The position numbers and the translations under genes are program-made. A stretch of DNA of 64,000 bases. Source: Patescibacteria group bacterium. Its GTDB lineage: Bacteria; Patescibacteriota; Minisyncoccia; Phycocordibacterales; PALSA-1337. Where the stretch lies: assembly GCA_038065395.1 (NCBI GenBank), contig JBBTRB010000003.1, positions 19,851 to 83,850 on the forward strand. Direction: 5' to 3'. The notes below the pieces were generated by a model. That model was given only the letters and a program-made list of their open reading frames with translations, did not search any database and was not told the origin of the DNA. How positions within the stretch are numbered: position 1 is the first letter of the stretch; every line of letters starts with the position of its first letter. Below are positions 6,422-63,118 of this stretch, one piece after another.

Positions 6422-6446
6422 AGAAATGTAAGTTTAACTTTATTTT

Positions 6447-6527
6447 GTCATCCCCATGAAAATGGGGATCCAGGATGTCACCACACTCTGTGGCTAGATC
6501 CTGGATTCCCGCCTTCGCGGGAATGAC
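6447..6527. repeat. RPE-like palindromic repeat element, short form (copy 1)
   Basis: Left arm gtcatccccatgaaaatggggatccaggat, spacer, right arm atcctggattcccgccttcgcgggaatgac. Intergenic between the M16 peptidase start and the glyQS stop. Confidence 0.8.
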
Positions 6528-6529
6528 AA

Positions 6530-7858
6530 CTACTGAATCTTCCCTACCAGATACTCTACCAACTTATCTTCTGCGATACGCTCCTGCGTGCCACTATCAC
6601 GATCGCGTACGGTGACACCTTCTCCTTTTTCGATCGTCTCAAAGTCGACAGTAACGCAAAACGGTGTACCGATCTCATCTTGACGGCGATAACGTTTGCC
6701 GATGTTACCGTTGTCGTCGAAGATAACTCCGGGGATGTTGGCTTTTAGCGTAGAGAATACTTCTTGGGCTTTCTTGATGAGCTCAGGTTTATTCCTGAGC
6801 AGTGGAAAAACTGCCACTTTGTATGGTGCAACTGATGGGGTCAGTTTGAGATAGGTGCGTTTCTCGCCACCCATATCATCCTCGGTATAGGCATCAGTGA
6901 GAACCGCAAGTACGGTGCGGTCGAGACCAAATGATGGTTCGATGCAATGTGGGACGAACCTCTCTTTGCTCTCTTCGTCATAGTATGACAAATCTACCTT
7001 ACTAAATTCAGAGTGTTGCTTGAGGTCGAAGTCCGTGCGATACGCCAGACCATAGAGCTCTTTCTTGCCAAATGGGAAATCGAATTCGAAGTCGATCGTT
7101 CTCTTGGAATAGTGTGCCCTGTCACCGTCGGCAACTTCGAGTTCATGGACTTTGGCAGCGTTGAGTCCCACGTCTTTGGTGAAAGCCAAGACTTCCTGTC
7201 TGAAATGTTCGAAGGTTTTCTCCCACTCTTTTGGGTTGACGAAATACTCGATCTCCATTTGTTCGAACTCACGTGCACGGAACAAGAAATCTCGTGGAGC
7301 GATCTCGTTGCGGAATGCCTTGCCGATCTGTGCCATACCGAATGGCAGTTTCGGATGCAGTGAGTCAAGGATATTCTTGAAGTTCACGAACATACCTTGA
7401 GCTGTCTCTGGGCGCAGATACGACACCGATGAAGAGTCGTTACTTGCTCCGACCTGTGTCTTGAACATCATGTTGAAAGACTTCACCGGTTCCCAAGAAT
7501 TCTTGGTCTCACACTCAGGACAACTATCTGGCAACTGCCAACTCTTGTCTCCTGCTTGTGTGCCGATCTGATCCGCACGAAAACGATGTTTGCACTTTTT
7601 GCACTCTACGAGTGGATCGGCGAAGCCAGAGACGTGACCGGAGGCTTCCCAGGTACGCTGATTCATCAGGATCGCTGCGTCCATACCATACATATCGTCA
7701 CGAGTATCGACGAAACGTTTCCACCAGATCTGTTTGATATTGTTCTTGAGAGCAACTCCCAGTGGCCCATAATCCCAGGTACCAGCCAAGCCTCCATAAA
7801 CTTCCGATCCCTGAAAAATAAAACCTCTGCGTTTACAGAGAGCCACCAACGATTCCAT
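6530..7858 (-). CDS. glyQS: glycine--tRNA ligase (homodimeric GlyQS type)
   Basis: MESLVALCKRRGFIFQGSEVYGGLAGTWDYGPLG is the canonical class II GlyRS N-terminus. Start placed at the ATG preceded by an AAAGAGGA RBS; the ORF extends to 7885. Confidence 0.9.
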   Translation of the reverse strand: MESLVALCKRRGFIFQGSEVYGGLAGTWDYGPLGVALKNNIKQIWWKRFVDTRDDMYGMDAAILMNQRTWEASGHVSGFADPLVECKKCKHRFRADQIGTQAGDKSWQLPDSCPECETKNSWEPVKSFNMMFKTQVGASNDSSSVSYLRPETAQGMFVNFKNILDSLHPKLPFGMAQIGKAFRNEIAPRDFLFRAREFEQMEIEYFVNPKEWEKTFEHFRQEVLAFTKDVGLNAAKVHELEVADGDRAHYSKRTIDFEFDFPFGKKELYGLAYRTDFDLKQHSEFSKVDLSYYDEESKERFVPHCIEPSFGLDRTVLAVLTDAYTEDDMGGEKRTYLKLTPSVAPYKVAVFPLLRNKPELIKKAQEVFSTLKANIPGVIFDDNGNIGKRYRRQDEIGTPFCVTVDFETIEKGEGVTVRDRDSGTQERIAEDKLVEYLVGKIQ

Positions 7859-7892
7859 TGTGTCCTCTTTTTTCATATGTCGCATTGTATAC

Positions 7893-11543: not shown

Positions 11544-12218
11544 CTACAACTGTGACGCCTGCAAGGAAGCATTGATGATACCGTTCACTTGCACCCGTAT
11601 TGGTGAAAAAGTAGAGAGCAACTCGGCCGAGAGATCGTAGGACATGACGAATGGCTTGGTGACTTCATGGTCACCGATATAGCCGAGCAGGTTCAGGATA
11701 CGGAGCGCAGTGAGAGACTCGAGTTCCGGCAATTTCTCAGCGGGCATATGGCCACTTATTCCGACTGTTGACTCTAGACAGTCAAAAAGTTCTGGATGGG
11801 GATCTTCACCTTGCAGGAGGCGCTTGAGTAACGTGGACATACGGACGAGGAGTTGTGCGTGTATTTTTCTACTGTTTTTTAGTTTGTCATTCCCATGAAA
11901 ATGGGAATCCAGGATATCACCATGTCTTGTGAGCAGATCCTGGATTCCCGCTTGCGCCTCCGCTGCGCTTTGGCTTGCGGGAATGACAGACTGCTGCGCA
12001 CTCGTGAGCCTCCACACTTCTTTGCCCCTGACCAAAGAGAAAATACCGAGTGAATAGTCACTGGTATGGTAGCGGAGTTTCGACTTCTCGAGACGGATGC
12101 CTTGCGCGGCGACCGAGACGAGGCCAAGGTCACGCGTGAAGATCGACAACATCTTCCCTGCTTCGCCGTAGGGGCGTGAACCGATCACAAATCCAGGTGT
12201 AGTATGGATGCTGTACAT
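11544..12218 (-). CDS. recO: DNA repair protein RecO (short form) carrying an in-frame repeat insertion
   Basis: N-term GFVIGSRPYGEAGKMLSIFTRDLGLVSVAAQGIRLEKSKLR matches the RecO OB-fold. Codons 78-111 are encoded by the palindromic repeat. Confidence 0.7.
   Translation of the reverse strand: MYSIHTTPGFVIGSRPYGEAGKMLSIFTRDLGLVSVAAQGIRLEKSKLRYHTSDYSLGIFSLVRGKEVWRLTSAQQSVIPASQSAAEAQAGIQDLLTRHGDILDSHFHGNDKLKNSRKIHAQLLVRMSTLLKRLLQGEDPHPELFDCLESTVGISGHMPAEKLPELESLTALRILNLLGYIGDHEVTKPFVMSYDLSAELLSTFSPIRVQVNGIINASLQASQL
11886..11987. repeat. RPE-like palindromic repeat element (copy 2) inserted in-frame in recO
   Basis: 102 bp (34 codons) beginning on a codon boundary. Arms gtcattcccatgaaaatgggaatccaggat / atcctggattcccgc...gcgggaatgac. 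Encodes VIPASQSAAEAQAGIQDLLTRHGDILDSHFHGND. Confidence 0.8.
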
Positions 12219-12224
12219 CGTCTT

Positions 12225-15200
12225 TTATATTCTCACCGAGAACACTTCACCGTATTCTATAGCCGACAGTCCTGTTGTCTTCTTGATCTCCTGTTCGTAT
12301 TTCATAGCAAGAGGTCGCGCTTCTTCGGTGAGTGTAAGAATCGCCACATCATTCACAGAGAGATTTTTCTCTTTGCGAGCATCTTGGATCTTACGGATGA
12401 GTTCACGGAGATCTCCTTCTTCTTTCAAACTCGGAGTGATAGTGATATCGAGCTCGACATCCTGTGCGATCGAAGTGTCTGTTTTGACTTCTTTGACATT
12501 AACCTCGTCCTTCACAAGTTCGACGAGTTCTGGGGTCAACGATATTTCCTTCCTGACTTTGAGTGTCTGTAGTGGCTGACGAACATTGATCTTGGATTTC
12601 ATACGAGCTTCGAGACCGCGTGAGGCGAGATCACGTACGGTTTGCATATCGGTGATGAGGTTCTTATCGACTATTCCTGCTACTGGCCACTGCTCCAGAT
12701 GCACACTCTCCTTGTCACCTCCTACTTCCTGGTAGAGATACTCTGCGAAGAACGGCGTGAATGGCGCCATGACTTTCGCAAGTGTCACGAGAACATAGTG
12801 AGTCGTCTCCAGTGCATGTCGTGCATCTTCGCCACCATCTTTGAATCGGTCACGTGAACGACGCACATACCACTGTGACAAGTCGGCAATGAAGTCACGT
12901 ATCGCGCGTGTAGGTTCAAGTAACACGTACGCATCCAGACCTGTGGTCACATGCCCCACCAGTTCATCGAGCTTGGAAACAATCCATTTATCTAGCACGT
13001 GCGATGAATTGTTCAATTGTTCCTTTGTTGAATTGTTCCTTGTCCCTTCGTACATCTTATAAAACGTCGTGACATTCGTAACCAAGTTGAACACTTTTTT
13101 GATGATCTCATCGACGGTCTTCTGGTCGAAGTTCTTTGACTCGCCAGGTTGGTTGACCGAGTACATCCAGAAGCGCAATGCATCTGCACCATAGAGATCC
13201 ATCATGTCCCATGGGTTGACCACGTTGCCGATGGATTTGCTCATCTTCTTACCCTCAGCGTCGAGGATATGCCCGAGACAGATGACATTCTTGAATGCCT
13301 TGCCTTTGCCCATGAGTGCACCGATCGCATGGAGCGTATAGAACCACCCACGTGTCTGATCGATGGCTTCGGAGATAAAATCTGCAGGATAGTTGGTGGC
13401 TTTCTTGATCCCCAACAGCTTGCCGTCGATACGATCCTTATTCTCAAAAGGATAATGATCCTGTGCAAAAGGCATCGCCCCCGAGTCGAACCATACGTCC
13501 ATGACTTCTTTGACACGCTTCATCGGAGAACCGCATGAACATGTGAGCGTGACTTCATCTATATACGGACGATGAAGATCGAGTTCGTATTCATGGTTAT
13601 GAGGGAGGATGGAGAAATCCAAGACATGGAACTGTGCATTGTGTATAAAATCCACATCTTTGCGCATGTGCATGGACTCAGATCTATTCCAACCCTTGGC
13701 CGCAGCGAACAAGAGGAATGCGGGCGTCTCATGAGTGACGATCAGGATCTTCTTGCCTTCATGAGTACGTTCCATATCGTACAAAAAGTCACCCATGCGT
13801 TTCTTGATATCGGCGAATGTCTCACCTCCTTCGGGTGCCTGGGTAAATCGGTCGTGACCCTTAAAACCTTTCACAAAATCAGAAACACTCGTCCCATCTG
13901 CAGAACCAGTACCGAGTTCACGGAGACGCTCATCTGTATGCATCGCGCCCTTATCGAGACCCCACGTACTGCGAAGTATTTCTGCGCTTTCTTGCGTACG
14001 CACGAATGGTGACACATATATCATATCGAACTTTTCTTTCTTGAGAGCTTCAGCGGCCACAGTGACCTGAGTCTTTCCTTTCTCTGTGAGATGATGCGGA
14101 ACATCTGCCTTACCAGAAAGGATCGCCTTCACGTTATTCTCTGCCTCTCCATGTCGCATGACATAGTAGGTATTCTTGGGCTTCTGCGCGATCTCTGCCA
14201 CAGATCCTACGACCTGCCTTTTGTCACATCCAGTACATGCCCACACAGGCAGAGGCGTACCCCAATACCGTTCGCGTGAGATCGCCCAGTCTTTGACTTC
14301 TCGGAGCCATTCACCGAACCGACCCTGTCCGATATGAGCAGGTTCCCAAGCAATCTCTGTGTTCTCTGTGACGAGCTTGTCACGGAGCTCGGACATACGG
14401 ATATACCACGAGTCACGCGCAAAATAGATAAGCGGTGTTTTGCAACGCCAACAATGTGGGTAGGTATGCTCGTGTTTCTCTTTATGGAAAAGGAGGCTGC
14501 CCTCTGGGCGGAGCGCCAAGTTCTTGATGATCTCCACGGCAACTTCTTCGCTCTTCACAAACTTACCTGCAAGAAAACCAGCCTCAGACTTGAATGTGCC
14601 GTCATCGTTAACCAGATGATATTTTGGTAAGCCCACCTTTGTGCCAAGCTCAAAGTCGTCTTGGCCATACATCGGCGCGATATGGACGATGCCTGTACCA
14701 TCTTCAGTTGTAACAAAGTCCCCCGCGTATACCTTGAAGGCATTACTGAGCTTGTCTTTCTCTGTGCCGGTCACTCCGTCTTTCAAGAATGGATACAGTG
14801 GTTCATATTCGAGACCAACGAGGTCAGAGCCTTTGAATTCTTTTTCAATTTGATAGGATTCTTTGATCAAACTGAGACGAGTTTTTGCAAGGATGACTCG
14901 GGCGTCCGCGGTCTGATCCTGGATTCCCGTTTTCACGGGAATGACAATCTGGACATACTCAACATCGTTCCCTACCGCCAATCCGACGTTGCCCGGAAGA
15001 GTCCACGGAGTCGTCGTCCATGCCAAAAGAAATGTATTCTTGAATCTTGGATCCTGAATCTTGAACTTAACGTAAACCGACAAGTCTTTGACTGTCTCAT
15101 ACCCCTGCGCGAGTTCATGCGACGAGAGCCCGGTACCGCAGCGCGGACACCATGGTACGACTTTGTAATCCTTATAGAGGAGTTTCTTCTGTTCAACTGT

Positions 15201-15707
15201 CTTGACGATATTCCACAACGACTCGATATAGTTCGGCCTGTAGGTCACGTAGGGATCCTTGAGGTCGACCCAGTACCCCATGCGGTCAGTGAACTTCTCC
15301 CATTCACCGACATATCTCCAGACACTCTCTTTGCATTTCTCATTGAACTTTTCTATGCCGTAGACTTCGATCTCTTTTTTCGACTTGAGTCCGAGCTCTT
15401 TCTCGACTTGGAGTTCCACAGGTAGACCGTGAGTGTCCCAGCCTCCCTTACGACGAACATGGAAGCCCTGCATGGTTTTGTAACGAGGGATAGCGTCCTT
15501 GAAAGCACGAGCCTCGAGGTGGTGGATACCGGGCATGCCGTTGGCTGTCGGAGGTCCTTCGAAGAAGGTGAACTCTCCTTGTGGCGCGTCTTTGTTCAGA
15601 GTCTTGGCGAAGATCCCCTTCTCCTTCCAGGACGCAAGGATACGCTCCTCACGTTCAGCATGAGTGCTTTTGGTATTCTTCTTTTCTGGGGTAACAGGTT
15701 CAGACAT
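12225..15707 (-). CDS. ileS: isoleucine--tRNA ligase with an inserted histidine-phosphatase (PGAM-like) domain
   Basis: 1160 aa with KMSKS, WCPRCGT, TTPWTLP editing and DLHRPYIDE motifs. An extra ~200 aa between the Zn knuckle and DLHRP carries YVMRHGEAENN and SPFVRTQESAEIL. Confidence 0.95.
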   Translation of the reverse strand: MSEPVTPEKKNTKSTHAEREERILASWKEKGIFAKTLNKDAPQGEFTFFEGPPTANGMPGIHHLEARAFKDAIPRYKTMQGFHVRRKGGWDTHGLPVELQVEKELGLKSKKEIEVYGIEKFNEKCKESVWRYVGEWEKFTDRMGYWVDLKDPYVTYRPNYIESLWNIVKTVEQKKLLYKDYKVVPWCPRCGTGLSSHELAQGYETVKDLSVYVKFKIQDPRFKNTFLLAWTTTPWTLPGNVGLAVGNDVEYVQIVIPVKTGIQDQTADARVILAKTRLSLIKESYQIEKEFKGSDLVGLEYEPLYPFLKDGVTGTEKDKLSNAFKVYAGDFVTTEDGTGIVHIAPMYGQDDFELGTKVGLPKYHLVNDDGTFKSEAGFLAGKFVKSEEVAVEIIKNLALRPEGSLLFHKEKHEHTYPHCWRCKTPLIYFARDSWYIRMSELRDKLVTENTEIAWEPAHIGQGRFGEWLREVKDWAISRERYWGTPLPVWACTGCDKRQVVGSVAEIAQKPKNTYYVMRHGEAENNVKAILSGKADVPHHLTEKGKTQVTVAAEALKKEKFDMIYVSPFVRTQESAEILRSTWGLDKGAMHTDERLRELGTGSADGTSVSDFVKGFKGHDRFTQAPEGGETFADIKKRMGDFLYDMERTHEGKKILIVTHETPAFLLFAAAKGWNRSESMHMRKDVDFIHNAQFHVLDFSILPHNHEYELDLHRPYIDEVTLTCSCGSPMKRVKEVMDVWFDSGAMPFAQDHYPFENKDRIDGKLLGIKKATNYPADFISEAIDQTRGWFYTLHAIGALMGKGKAFKNVICLGHILDAEGKKMSKSIGNVVNPWDMMDLYGADALRFWMYSVNQPGESKNFDQKTVDEIIKKVFNLVTNVTTFYKMYEGTRNNSTKEQLNNSSHVLDKWIVSKLDELVGHVTTGLDAYVLLEPTRAIRDFIADLSQWYVRRSRDRFKDGGEDARHALETTHYVLVTLAKVMAPFTPFFAEYLYQEVGGDKESVHLEQWPVAGIVDKNLITDMQTVRDLASRGLEARMKSKINVRQPLQTLKVRKEISLTPELVELVKDEVNVKEVKTDTSIAQDVELDITITPSLKEEGDLRELIRKIQDARKEKNLSVNDVAILTLTEEARPLAMKYEQEIKKTTGLSAIEYGEVFSVRI
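14916..14945. repeat. solo arm of the RPE-like element inside ileS (in-frame)
   Basis: atcctggattcccgttttcacgggaatgac; on the coding strand it encodes VIPVKTGIQD (10 codons). Confidence 0.6.
15041..15065. repeat. 25-nt mini-repeat (CYTGAATCTTRRATCCTRWATCTTG family) inside ileS
   Basis: tgaatcttggatcctgaatcttgaa encodes KFKIQDPRF; similar to two copies in argS. Confidence 0.4.
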
Positions 15708-24727: not shown

Positions 24728-25237
24728 ATGCAAACCTTCATCATCGCCGCCCTGTCAGCAGATGGATACATCGCTCGAGATGCACGACACGCTTCGCTCG
24801 CCTGGACGAGCAAAGAAGACAAGCGACGGTTCATCGAGCTGACCAAACGCGCTGGAGTTGTGGTGATGGGCTCGACTACCTATGCAACACTCCAGCGACC
24901 GCTCAAAGAACGCGTCAATATCGTCTACTCTACTTCGAAGAAGTTCGAGGGTGCCGAGACGACCAACAAACCCCCTTTCGAACTTCTGGCCGAGCTCAAG
25001 GAACGCGGCTTCAAAGAAGTAGCCATCTGTGGAGGTGCCCATATCTACACCATGTTCATGAAGGCCAAGGTCGTCGACAAACTCTACCTCACCATCGAAC
25101 CGATCATCTTTGGTTCAGGAGTCAGACTCTTCAACGAAGACCTGACCCATCATCTCAAACTCGTTGCCTGCGGACAGACCGAGGGTGGTGCGATCCTTCT
25201 GGAATACGATGTACTTCAGTCAGGAAACGTTGAGTGA
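24728..25237 (+). CDS. dihydrofolate reductase family protein
   Basis: MQTFIIAALSADGYIA...VVVMGSTTYATLQRPLKERVNIVYS matches DHFR N-terminal and NADPH-binding patterns. Confidence 0.65.
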   Translation: MQTFIIAALSADGYIARDARHASLAWTSKEDKRRFIELTKRAGVVVMGSTTYATLQRPLKERVNIVYSTSKKFEGAETTNKPPFELLAELKERGFKEVAICGGAHIYTMFMKAKVVDKLYLTIEPIIFGSGVRLFNEDLTHHLKLVACGQTEGGAILLEYDVLQSGNVE

Positions 25238-25253
25238 TAATGACCCTGGTTTT

Positions 25254-25431
25254 GTCATCCCCGCGAAGGCGGGGATCCAGGAGTAAGGGCGTAGCTACTT
25301 ACTTAACTCTATACAATTACAAAAGTCAGCATCATGTACATGAATGCTGACTTTCTGTTTTCTGTGATTAGATAAACCGATCGAACCATATACTGAAAGT
25401 GATTCTGGATCCCCGCCTTCGCGGGGATGAC
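25254..25431. repeat. RPE-like palindromic repeat element, long form (copy 3)
   Basis: Arms gtcatccccgcgaaggcggggatccaggag / attctggatccccgccttcgcggggatgac flank an AT-rich core with a perfect 9-bp hairpin agtcagcat...atgctgact. Confidence 0.8.
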
Positions 25432-25438
25432 ACGCAAT

Positions 25439-27986: not shown

Positions 27987-28028
27987 ATAGATATATTTAT
28001 CTGGTAATTACGTTCATTATACATGCGT

Positions 28029-28110
28029 GTCATCCCCGTGAAAACGGGGATCCAGGATATGACCACGTCATGTGACCAGAATCCTGGATTCCCGCATACG
28101 CGGGAATGAC
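28029..28110. repeat. RPE-like palindromic repeat element, short form (copy 4)
   Basis: gtcatccccgtgaaaacggggatccaggat ... atcctggattcccgcatacgcgggaatgac; ends 4 nt before the folD stop codon. Confidence 0.8.
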
Positions 28111-28113
28111 ATT

Positions 28114-28965
28114 CTACTTACAGAGATCGAGTACGTTCTCGAAGAGAGCACAGACTGTCATGGGTCCCACTCCACCTGGAACAGGAGTGATCATCGCGAC
28201 AACATCTGCAACTTCTCTCGACACATCACCGACCATCTTCCCTTCCGATGAGGTATTGATACCTACATCGATAACGATCTGGCCTTCCCGCACATGATCC
28301 TTACGAATAAGACCGGCTGACCCGGCTGCCACGATTATAACGTCGGCGGCCTGTGTTTCTTTCACGAGATCTGGAGTGCCCCGATGACATACCGTTACCT
28401 GTGCACCAGCCTGCCTACACATCTCTGCTACCGGAGTTCCTACCAGGAGCGATCGTCCGATAACCGCCACCTTCTTCCCTGAAATGGGTACGTGGTAAAA
28501 CGCCAGCAATTCTCGGATACCTCTGGCTGTTGCGGGCATGACTTTTGCACCTGTAGTCAGACCATCTGCATCCTTTGCAGGGTCGATGTGTGCGATGACC
28601 TTGTCTCGGTTCATATGTGGAGGCAATGGAAGTTGAACTATGAGGGCATGTATCGATGCATCATCATTGCACTCTTGGATTTTGGAAATGAGCTCGGCTT
28701 CAGAAATAGTTTCGGGTAGCTGAATGTGTTTTTCCTGCACACCGATCTTGGCGGCAAATCGTCTTTTTGCATTGATAAAAGCCGTAGAGTCCTCGCGTGT
28801 ACCGACCTGAATGATCGCCAGAGTGGGCACAAAAGAAAGCGCCTCTATCTTCTTGATGAGTTCGGGGACTAGAGCATCACGGACAGTACGACCAGAGAGG
28901 ATGGTTGCGGGCATATGGGAGAGCGTAGCATTAAAATAATGCGAATCAAAAATTAATATATTCAC
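28114..28965 (-). CDS. folD: bifunctional methylenetetrahydrofolate dehydrogenase/cyclohydrolase
   Basis: 283 aa with GRSLLVGTPVAEM and VIDVGIN...GDV motifs. Confidence 0.9.
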   Translation of the reverse strand: MNILIFDSHYFNATLSHMPATILSGRTVRDALVPELIKKIEALSFVPTLAIIQVGTREDSTAFINAKRRFAAKIGVQEKHIQLPETISEAELISKIQECNDDASIHALIVQLPLPPHMNRDKVIAHIDPAKDADGLTTGAKVMPATARGIRELLAFYHVPISGKKVAVIGRSLLVGTPVAEMCRQAGAQVTVCHRGTPDLVKETQAADVIIVAAGSAGLIRKDHVREGQIVIDVGINTSSEGKMVGDVSREVADVVAMITPVPGGVGPMTVCALFENVLDLCK

Positions 28966-38673: not shown

Positions 38674-38712
38674 TTACCCCACACCTGCTCTCACTATATC
38701 TAAAAAATAATC
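38674..38712. repeat. promoter-like 39-nt motif, copy at left end of the island
   Basis: ttaccccacacctgctctcactatatctaaaaaataatc; 38/39 identical to 45677-45715. Confidence 0.5.
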
Positions 38713-45236: not shown

Positions 45237-45677
45237 CTAGAAAAGTTTAGGGTTTAAAATACCGCTTGAGAAAGCTTCCTTTAGAGGATTCGGGATGGAA
45301 ATCCTGTTTTTTAGGAAAAAGTTTCTGTATAAATTTGAAAGAGGCGGATTGGATGTATAAAAGATTTCACGCACGCCAAGCAATGCAAGCAGAGCGAGTA
45401 GAGAAAAGACGAGAGAAAGTGCTTCCTTTGCCGGAAGGACAGTAAACATATTTTGCCATGCCTGAATGTGCTCCATTGGCGACATTTTACAGATAGAGCT
45501 ATGGCCCGGCATGAACGGACAGTTAATAGGCTTTGGTCCGTAGTGTCCCGCCATTGCAAAATGGGATATTCCAAAAAGAAGAGTGACTAGAGTAAGCCCG
45601 ATGATAGCAAAGGTTAGAATTTTGAGGATTTTTGATCGCACGGTGTTAATTATATATTTTTGTTGGCCAATCGTCAT
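45237..45677 (-). CDS. hypothetical membrane protein
   Basis: 146 aa; the start codon lies inside the 39-nt motif. Confidence 0.4.
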   Translation of the reverse strand: MTIGQQKYIINTVRSKILKILTFAIIGLTLVTLLFGISHFAMAGHYGPKPINCPFMPGHSSICKMSPMEHIQAWQNMFTVLPAKEALSLVFSLLALLALLGVREIFYTSNPPLSNLYRNFFLKNRISIPNPLKEAFSSGILNPKLF

Positions 45678-46090
45678 TACCCCACACCTGCGCTCACTAT
45701 ATCTAAAAAATAATCCTGAACCCCCATTTTACCTGTAAATGCAGGTGTTCACCATTTTCCACCCTTTTTAAATGGGGGTTGACCACCGTTTTTTCACCGT
45801 TTTTAAACGGTGGTTACCCCCACTCTCACTCGCTATCTCGCTCAAAAAGTAGTTCCCGTTAATTTCCCGTTATTACGGGAACTTGGAAAGGCCTACCCCA
45901 CAGTCTCATTCACTATTTCGAGCTACTTCACCGATGACCGTAATCACCGTAATTTTGGACCGGACCAACTCACCTGTTATTCTCCTGTTCTATCAGGTGA
46001 GTACCCGCTAATTCACCGCTAATAAGGGTAGGAGAAACAGGTGCTTATCAGGAGTTATCAGGCTGCAAGGTTTTACCGTAAATCACAGCT
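45677..46090. repeat. non-coding array: three promoter-like motifs, each followed by duplicated 8-10 nt iterons and hairpins
   Basis: Motif copies at 45677, 45826 and 45893. Iteron pairs caccgttttt x2, cccgtta x2, accgtaat x2, cctgttat x2, ccgctaat x2, ttatcagg x2, several with adjacent inverted copies. Confidence 0.5.
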
Positions 46091-62769: not shown

Positions 62770-62909
62770 ACCAACCTTTCTGATCCTCTCGGATCTCTTG
62801 CAATCCCCTCTCGGGGATATTATGTATGTTCTTGCTCTCGCAAGAGGCTTACAACGTGCAAACCTGACTGAACTCTATGCTTTTTCGGGAAGATGTCAAA
62901 TGCGGTTGT

Positions 62910-63095
62910 GTCATCCTCGCGCAGGCGGGGATCTAGGAGCAAGGGCATGGCTACTTATTTAATATCTATACAACCACAAAACATTAGATACTATCCCTGT
63001 AAGTAAATGCCGAACCTATCACATTTATTATTTACATAGCCTAAGTCGACTATATACTGGGAGTGATTCTGGATCCCCGCCTGCGCGGGGATGAC
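62910..63095. repeat. RPE-like palindromic repeat element, long form (copy 5)
   Basis: gtcatcctcgcgcaggcggggatctaggag ... attctggatccccgcctgcgcggggatgac. Inner termini aagggcatggctactta... and ...atatactgggagtg match the 25254 copy. Confidence 0.8.
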
Positions 63096-63118
63096 ACAGG
63101 ACAGAGAGATATGTAGGT

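Follow-up and report, generated by a model that had tools for sequence, protein, structure and literature searches.

An in-frame pair of CGTC-1/NTS-type REP hairpins in the recO gene of a Patescibacteria group bacterium

What is a 102-bp palindrome doing inside a DNA-repair gene? The question is raised by positions 11886–11987 of a 64,000-nucleotide stretch of DNA (hereafter the window) from a Patescibacteria group bacterium (assembly GCA_038065395.1, contig JBBTRB010000003.1), in which the recO gene carries a palindromic segment and stays open. A preliminary description, made from the sequence letters, had regarded the segment as a mobile palindrome inserted in frame between conserved RecO blocks, had likened it to Rickettsia palindromic elements (RPEs), and had suggested that the protein tolerates it. 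We favor, with a probability of about 0.85, the reading that the 102 bp are a non-autonomous dimer of repetitive extragenic palindromic (REP) hairpins inserted in the linker of RecO, leaving the gene intact, and that the insert is a tolerated passenger and not a new functional domain.

The coordinates and codon arithmetic of the preliminary description agree with ours. Codon 78 starts at 12218 − 77 × 3 = 11987, and thus 11886–11987 comprises exactly 34 codons (78–111), which encode VIPASQSAAEAQAGIQDLLTRHGDILDSHFHGND. Within this product, HGDILDSHFHGNDK is a tryptic peptide that would mark a translated insert. The claim that the stretch is palindromic also holds. Folded as DNA, the insert reaches −26.7 kcal/mol (z = −5.7, 0 of 200 shuffles equally good), folded as mRNA it reaches −50.8 kcal/mol (z = −6.3 versus shuffled sequences), and it belongs to a repeat family with six loci in the window. 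When the unpaired TGTC/GACA tags are counted in, the element extends over 11885–11988. The gene and the parts of the element are as follows.

11544 to 12218, minus strand: recO, 224 residues, assigned from the open reading frame (ORF), the Pfam RecO_N and RecO_C and TIGR00613 matches, and AlphaFold and PDB matches.
11885 to 11988, no strand: head-to-head dimer of two REP hairpins of CGTC-1/NTS type with the TGTC tags outermost, as read from its anatomy, repeat alignment and folding.
11885 to 11912, plus strand: REP arm A, canonical (TGTC, ATTCCCAT, GAAA, ATGGGAAT, CCAG), from the module scan.
11913 to 11939, no strand: inter-arm spacer of 27 nt, from the alignment of copies.
11940 to 11988, minus strand: REP arm B, long-loop variant (TGTC, ATTCCCGC, 25-nt loop, GCGGGAAT, CCAG), from the alignment of copies.

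The anatomy of the REP unit is TGTC, ATTCCCGC, GAAG, GCGGGAAT, CCAG. Relative to the canonical arm, arm B has 21 extra nucleotides, equal to 7 codons, and encodes VIPA-SQSAAEAQ-AGIQ (residues 78–93), while arm A on the gene strand encodes ...LDSHFHGND (residues 103–111). The recO copy aligns end to end with short intergenic pairs elsewhere in the window, save for the 21 extra loop bases in one arm (102 = 81 + 21).

Next, we considered the repeat family across the window. The hairpin module [T]GTCATYCCC-N8-GGGRATCCAG (27–28 nt), written GTCATYCCC-N8-GGGRATCYAG in its 27-nt terminal form, occurs 10 times, against 0.01 expected, and the long-loop unit of recO is the eleventh, giving a total of 11 REP units at 6 loci in 64 kb (expected 0.01–0.19). 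A looser module scan of the window returned no additional convincing copy. Besides the recO dimer, the loci are the following.

6446 to 6528, no strand: short intergenic dimer, 83 nt with tags, 1 nt past the stop of the ORF at 6530–7885.
28028 to 28111, no strand: short intergenic dimer, 84 nt with tags, 2 nt past the stop of the ORF at 28114–28965.
25253 to 25432, no strand: 180-nt long variant whose termini are those of the other REP pairs and whose interior is non-coding; it is flanked by convergent ORFs that end at 25237 and 25439.
62909 to 63096, no strand: second long variant, 188 nt, with an interior related to that of the copy at 25253.
14916 to 14945, minus strand: single REP unit inside the isoleucyl-tRNA synthetase (IleRS) gene (12225–15707, minus strand), from the module scan and orthologue comparison.

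Five of the six loci are head-to-head dimers with 27–132 nt between the arms, the spacer in recO being 27 nt. In each of the five full copies GTCAT is preceded by T and ATGAC is followed by A, and CCAG follows the stem in 11 of 11 units. The interiors of the two long variants are AT-rich, 86% identical over 59 nt, have stops in all frames and are not similar to the ssn gene described below. The intergenic dimers lie hard against ORF 3′ ends, as has been described for CGTC-1 REPs, and this placement suggests a role at the RNA level. An Rfam search (permissive filters, 5–30 kb) returned no family for the hairpins.

The anatomy matches a known class of repeats. CGTC REPs have a CGTC tag (often TGTC), an 8-bp stem starting with AT and a CCA tail, with a 4-nt loop in CGTC-1, although variable loop lengths are noted in some CGTC-1 sets; head-to-head dimers, tags outermost and partners 20–100 bp apart, are their predominant form (Di Nocera 2013, PMC3733652). 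In the recO element the tag is TGTC at 11885–11888 with its reverse complement GACA at 11985–11988. Arm A has the stem and loop of CGTC-1, and arm B has the right stem with a 25-nt loop, a variant. The CCA tail and the multi-copy head-to-head dimers are also present. BLAST of a window unit against plasmid and chromid records gave 100% identity over 27–29 nt in Azospirillum lipoferum, Sphingobium and Sphingomonas, and 93% identity to copies from Neisseria gonorrhoeae and Legionella. CGTC-1 is equated with Neisseria dRS3 and with RPE-6 of R. conorii, and only RPE-6 and RPE-4 among the Rickettsia families were equated with CGTC REPs (PMC3733652). Intragenic CGTC-1 copies lie in frame, add 20–30 residues and are often found in DNA replication or repair and aminoacyl-tRNA synthetase genes; their tabulated peptides include VIPAKAGI, LDSRFRGND and SIPAKAGIQTGPSMDSRLRGNA, the last in DNA polymerase I of Micavibrio, and a dimer in IleRS of Erythrobacter is among them (PMC3733652). 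Peptides of the insert type match the R. conorii CGTC-1 entries of these tables. We looked for recO in the supplementary host-gene tables of that survey and found no entry.

The same hairpin is described from Neisseria with the NTS consensus CGTCATTCCCGCGMAVGCGGGAATCYRG (Nat Commun 2025, PMC11893778, hereafter the Ssn paper). The window units fit this consensus except for T in place of the first C. The Ssn paper's SRM search pattern picks out eight of them, against 0.19 expected, and misses the long-loop arm and two units whose inner stem is A-T (6447 and 11886). Thus, judged by its sequence, the 102-bp segment is a head-to-head CGTC-1/NTS REP dimer, a hairpin that is among the most widespread bacterial repeats.

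Is the gene that carries the dimer a working recO? Its product matches Pfam RecO_N (PF11967) over residues 4–75 (E 7e-12), RecO_C weakly over residues 127–180 (E 0.004), and TIGR00613 with E 7e-11, which is under the curated cutoff of that family. An identical protein is found in NCBI and ENA, on 5 contigs from two sources, labelled as a RecO N-terminal-domain protein of a ‘Patescibacteria group bacterium’ metagenome-assembled genome (MAG). The AlphaFold model, built on 118 sequences, has a predicted local distance difference test score (pLDDT) of 87 and a predicted template modeling score (pTM) of 0.81. The model consists of an oligonucleotide-binding (OB) fold with strands at residues 4–76 and a helical domain from residue 111, both confident. 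The layout of the product is thus an N-terminal OB-fold domain (residues 1–76), a linker bearing the insert (residues 75–125) and a helical C-terminal domain (residues 111–224 in the model). The preliminary description had proposed modeling to see whether the insert lands in a surface loop, and it falls in a low-confidence flexible linker between the domains: the ten-residue blocks of residues 81–110, all inside the insert, have pLDDT values of 55–61, and a helix at residues 85–97 is predicted with low confidence. In a Foldseek search, the top eleven PDB matches of the model are all RecO, headed by 3q8d, 1w3s, 8ab0 and 7ymo. Hence an OB fold of RecO_N type is followed by a helical domain in a RecO-like three-dimensional fold. 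The gene order ArgRS-IleRS-RecO is kept in relatives.

Comparison with the closest orthologue, P0002, over the 176 codons that flank the insert gave a proportion of synonymous differences (pS) of 0.71 and of nonsynonymous differences (pN) of 0.105, with omega of 0.05. Set beside 118 orthologues, the window ORF is complete in length and has lost none of the invariant residues. Because omega of the flanking sequence is 0.05, we consider recO to be a functional gene under strong purifying selection, with the insert in a flexible inter-domain loop. The suggestion that the insertion is tolerated at the protein level is supported by the linker site and by this value.

We compared the linker among RecO orthologues, an alignment that the preliminary description had proposed in order to see whether the 34 residues are absent from relatives. 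A search gave 974 homologues, of which the best 120 were taken and 118 aligned; those listed carry RecO_N. Most of the best 120 have 185–205 residues, a short C-terminal domain being typical of this family in Patescibacteria. The linker was measured from the end of the OB fold (...WRLTSA) to the first conserved helix of the C-terminal domain (R-x-x-LL-x-RLL) and has 12–69 residues with a median of 22 among the 118; in the window it has 51, that is 17 + 34. Most orthologues are without the 34 residues, and recognizable element peptides are present in only 5 of the 118. The nearest insert-free orthologues (P0005–P0008, 57–58% identical by BLASTP, 185–193 residues) have a short linker, as in L003. 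The description that the insert stands between conserved blocks is therefore right as to the frame but not as to its immediate neighbors, since the site is a linker whose length, depending on the orthologue, is anything between 12 and 69 residues.

The following observations bear on the age of the insertion and on how often it happened. P0002, the closest relative (77% identical, two independent assemblies), carries a homologous insert at the same codon, including the long loop GIPASRSVAEAQAGIQDLVTKRGDISGPILRGE, with a decayed DNA palindrome (folding z of −1.0 and +0.8 versus shuffles). P0003 has part of a different element variant further along the linker. Two variants of the element, each complete, are found in the RecO linkers of P0011 and P0015, which form a distant pair. 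P0015 holds a long-loop arm (VIPASRSEAKAQAGIQ) similar to that of the window, and P0011 and P0015 share the right arm TLDPRFRGDD but differ in their long-loop left arm. We tried to relate the two long-loop types (SRSxAxAQ versus PxxRRGQAP) as one inverted loop; compared by hand with the L006 loop in reverse complement, the loop of the window gave only patchy similarity. A metagenome scan for closer RecO relatives, which could date the insertion or supply an empty site, returned only loci of 48% identity or less.

According to the preliminary description, the insertion reading would fall if sister lineages carried the same residues with normal codon drift and no palindromic signature, or if a frameshift made recO a pseudogene. 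P0002 literally shows the former, with the same residues, drift and a decayed palindrome, while no pseudogene frameshift is seen and omega is low. The insert in P0002 does not refute an insertion, because more distant orthologues have no such residues and the copy in the window belongs genuinely to the family; it means instead that the insertion is older than the split of the window lineage from P0002. We conclude from these alignments that the insertion is real and earlier than that split, and that the RecO linker has been hit more than once.

Other repeats were observed in the same linker. In L048 (2501–3112, P0031) it holds a run of xxACGAAT units, translated as NTNLRIYANDTN, with similar peptides in P0034, P0085 and P0104, and in L049 (1180–1788, P0112) it holds the direct repeat CACCGAGGTCCGAC twice, with a palindromic core. 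The presence of such unrelated small repeats in other lineages fits a RecO linker that tolerates almost anything.

The dimer is not confined to RecO. We scanned species-representative genomes with the inner part of the dimer as query and took symmetric hits as true dimers. Such hits were found in a Paceibacterota MAG (5 contigs), an ‘uncultured bacterium’ bin (3 contigs), a Kaiserbacteria MAG, two Saccharibacteria MAGs, one Sphingomonas and one Rhizobium MAG; the ‘uncultured bacterium’ bin gave one extra single-strand hit, at a locus with a REP module. Hits on a single strand only, as in Streptomyces, Lachnospiraceae and others, are devoid of REP modules and were rejected as chance matches. 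By Pfam, dimers lie within long ORFs for SecA, an M50/PDZ protease (RseP), RsmH, PheT and a PHP-domain protein of other Patescibacteria, and their reading frame is VIPAKAGIQD...ILDSRLRGND each time.

In the IleRS of the window, one unit is read in the same frame and accounts for exactly VIPVKTGIQD, residues that a 76%-identical orthologue (L003) does not have. The L003 protein has an extra 6 residues of its own, VPAHAG, about 40 residues upstream, possibly a decayed unit. The IleRS of the window also contains a nested PF00300 His_Phos_1 domain (residues 515–682, E 4e-33) in the class I synthetase core, and the L003/L004 orthologue has it as well.

All nine in-frame insertions, three RecO events included, use one frame. 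One of the three frames is shut by the TGA in ATGAC; with two equally usable frames, nine of nine has a probability of roughly 0.002. A REP in the other open frame (WIPAFAGMT) was seen near the annotated N-terminus of a class II aminoacyl-tRNA synthetase with an HGTP anticodon-binding domain, probably prolyl-tRNA synthetase, at L010 787–2118 (minus strand); this unit probably lies upstream of the true start codon and is not coding.

Where could such dimers come from? SsnA is a 94-residue GIY-YIG protein that binds and cuts the NTS hairpin only as single-stranded DNA; binding and cutting were shown for the Neisseria and Wolbachia homologues, and the ssn gene typically lies between inverted hairpins, like an insertion sequence (IS) (PMC11893778). 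In L010, two inverted REP units 328 bp apart enclose a 92-residue GIY-YIG ORF (PF01541, E 2e-18), whose sole sequence relative in the PDB is the UPF0213 protein 1zg2. Complete units of hairpin, GIY-YIG gene and hairpin, with proteins of 92–120 residues, are found at three loci.

L010, 2053 to 2436: hairpin, GIY-YIG gene, hairpin.
L046, 5947 to 6329 (Paceibacterota): hairpin, GIY-YIG gene, hairpin.
L047, 6009 to 6395: hairpin, GIY-YIG gene, hairpin.

The L010 nuclease has at least about 8000 database homologues; those listed are 67–82% identical and are named from Paceibacterota, Chloroflexota, Planctomycetia, Nitrospinae and Defluviitoga. This distribution suggests that Ssn-like genes may often have spread horizontally. 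The gene-less dimers share about 10 nt inside the hairpin with the REP-ssn-REP units of other Patescibacteria: GGTAATATCC, present as GGTGATATCC at the end of the spacer in recO. A shared subterminal stretch of this kind is what an internal-deletion derivative would show. The small GIY-YIG Ssn-like nuclease is the probable mobilizer of the dimers.

We propose that the gene-less dimers would be internal-deletion derivatives of an IS-like unit of REP, Ssn-type GIY-YIG gene and REP, and that they may have been moved through single-stranded intermediates by the GIY-YIG nuclease, as the literature and the units in relatives suggest. One dimer would have entered the linker between the OB-fold and helical domains of RecO before the split from P0002. 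Its length is a multiple of three and the frame used, VIPA..AGIQD...LDS.F.GND, has no stop and gives a hydrophilic peptide; for these reasons recO could stay open. The 34 residues would be translated and carried as a flexible surface loop, at a place where the protein tolerates any length, and the insert is presumably neutral or nearly so for RecO at the protein level.

Several results weigh against this proposal, in its mechanism and in the age and neutrality that it assumes. Mobilization by Ssn has been demonstrated for no REP, and in the Ssn paper it is put forward only as a hypothesis (PMC11893778). In the 64-kb window, a GIY-YIG regular expression and tblastn with the L010 nuclease found no ssn-like gene. 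Comparison of the flanks of the five full copies revealed neither a target-site duplication nor a conserved target, and no empty site was found in a close relative. The last point is a misfit in divergence: the insert differs from that of P0002 at 23 of 102 positions, while flanking synonymous sites are saturated. Of its 25 synonymous sites 7 differ (binomial p 1e-5), and third-position differences number 8 of 34 in the insert against 96 of 176 in the flanks (Fisher p 0.001). The conservation resides in the 5′ 75 nt of the insert, the long-loop arm and spacer, where 10 of 75 positions differ (87% identical, pS 0.24, pN 0.115), and the 3′ arm differs at 13 of 27. Neutral drift since the P0002 split would have brought the insert near saturation, unlike what is observed, and selection at the protein level alone does not explain conserved synonymous sites.

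The alternative that survives best is that the insert has been refreshed since the split, whether through gene conversion from copies elsewhere in the genome, a new insertion at the old site or a short recombination tract, and is younger than the divergence of the genes suggests. We regard this as possible, with odds well short of even. It would account for an insert divergence of 23 of 102 beside saturated neutral sites, and multi-copy REP families supply donor copies. The linkers of P0011 and P0015, close relatives with the same right arm TLDPRFRGDD and two different long-loop left arms, hint at arm replacement in situ. Against a refresh, however, the 64-kb window has no second long-loop copy and the 5.2 kb around the P0002 gene has no REP, and the same insertion codon in both lineages is explained most simply by a single event.

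Less probable, and in our view unlikely, is that the insert, or its 5′ arm with long loop and spacer, was co-opted and is under selection at the nucleotide level, as an Ssn or single-strand hairpin site, as an mRNA structure controlling recO, or through a useful peptide. The conserved 5′ 75 nt beside a drifted 3′ arm and flanks with pS of 0.71 would fit this, as would the near-perfect palindrome of the window copy (z of about −5), the similar long-loop arm in the distant P0015 and the low-confidence helix at residues 85–97. However, most RecO orthologues manage without the insert, the lost palindrome of P0002 indicates that the structure is not maintained there, and the presence of the same element in many unrelated proteins argues against a role specific to RecO; moreover, the insert offers just 25 synonymous sites. 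A wider form of this idea is slightly more doubtful: Ssn-type elements would be active in Patescibacteria and would systematically remodel essential proteins (RecO, IleRS, SecA, PheT, RsmH, RseP) through one frame, and the 5′ arm in recO would be a functional RNA structure or single-strand hairpin site, maintained as nucleotide sequence. If true, a target of a single-stranded DNA nuclease would be linked to the gene of a mediator of single-stranded DNA recombination.

That recO is a pseudogene, or that the ORF is untranslated through the insert and only looks in frame by coincidence, is effectively refuted: beyond the general possibility, it could draw on the weak RecO_C match and the TIGR00613 score under cutoff, and against it stand the omega of the flanks, the full-length ORF with its invariant residues kept, the confidently predicted RecO fold, the family-typical short C-terminal domain and the identical protein on 5 contigs from two sources. 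Least probable of all is a native linker whose 34 residues owe their palindrome to chance or to an assembly error; the linker is naturally variable, but this reading is refuted by the count of terminal modules (10 observed against 0.01 expected per window), by the full-length alignment of the recO copy with intergenic copies and by the homologous insert in an independent assembly of the sister lineage. Our preferred reading remains a REP dimer carried as a passenger in an intact recO.

A further repeat in the window is unrelated to the REP family. It is a 39-nt direct repeat, 97% identical, at 38674–38712 and 45677–45715 (TTACCCCACACCTGC.CTCACTATATCTAAAAAATAATC), its copies 7 kb apart and each just downstream of genes.

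That in-frame REP or RPE insertions occur in housekeeping genes, preferentially those for DNA repair and tRNA synthetases, is already documented (PMC3733652). New here are Patescibacteria as host phylum, recO as host gene and the long-loop arm, as is the co-occurrence of ssn-carrying units and gene-less dimers in essential genes within one group of genomes. Nothing relevant came from a literature search combining the Candidate Phyla Radiation with MITE, REP and palindromic elements, and neither Patescibacteria nor in-frame coding insertions or RPEs are discussed in the Ssn paper (PMC11893778). In-frame insertions of REP/RPE type are thereby extended to Patescibacteria (Candidate Phyla Radiation), whose genomes are minimal and in which unexplained insertions in core proteins are a recurring annotation puzzle. 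Peptides like VIPAKAGIQD...LDSRLRGND in proteins from MAGs can be recognized as derived from repeats and masked in alignments, phylogenies and structure predictions. Two literatures are also joined, the 2013 survey, in which CGTC REPs were judged to have no dedicated transposase (PMC3733652), and the 2025 Ssn paper with its associated GIY-YIG nuclease.

Comparison with known systems places the window elements nearest to the CGTC-1 REPs, with which they have in common the unit anatomy, head-to-head dimers, copies within 20 bp of ORF 3′ ends and in-frame peptides. They differ in the loop, which has 4 nt in CGTC-1 and 25 nt in one arm here, and in the host, since the tabulated phyla are Proteobacteria, Chlorobi, Bacteroidetes, Spirochaetes and Thermotogae (PMC3733652) and do not include Patescibacteria. 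With the NTS/SRM family, the architecture of hairpin, ssn and hairpin is also found in Patescibacteria relatives, though not within this 64-kb window, and the role shown in the Ssn paper is the modulation of transformation in Neisseria.

The Rickettsia RPEs (Ogata et al. 2000, 2002) are likewise in-frame palindromes in housekeeping genes, read in one frame and placed at sites tolerated by the fold, and the trait that defines them, a palindrome in frame in a gene that is still functional, is found in the recO insert. The likeness drawn by the preliminary description goes beyond analogy, as the definition of CGTC-1 fits and the peptides VIPAKAGI and LDSRFRGND recur. The link to RPE-6 is indirect, through Di Nocera's equation of CGTC-1 with RPE-6 and the shared peptides; the name RPE is not applicable, the host being a free-living or episymbiotic Patescibacterium, whereas Rickettsia is an obligate intracellular alphaproteobacterium. 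RPE-1 is set apart from the window element by its description, being longer (about 100–150 bp) and specific to Rickettsia.

MITEs (small transposable elements with inverted repeats; Correia/NEMIS, ERIC) and the GTAG REPs or BIMEs with their RAYT (REPtrons) are also short hairpins that form inverted dimers and are occasionally intragenic. The classical definition of a MITE fits in part, in that terminal inverted repeats are present but target-site duplications are not seen in the five full copies. The GTAG REPs and BIMEs derive from or are served by a small gene between the same hairpins, as is proposed for the family in the window, the pairing being a GTAG tag with an HUH tyrosine transposase in the one case and a CGTC-type tag with a GIY-YIG protein in the other.

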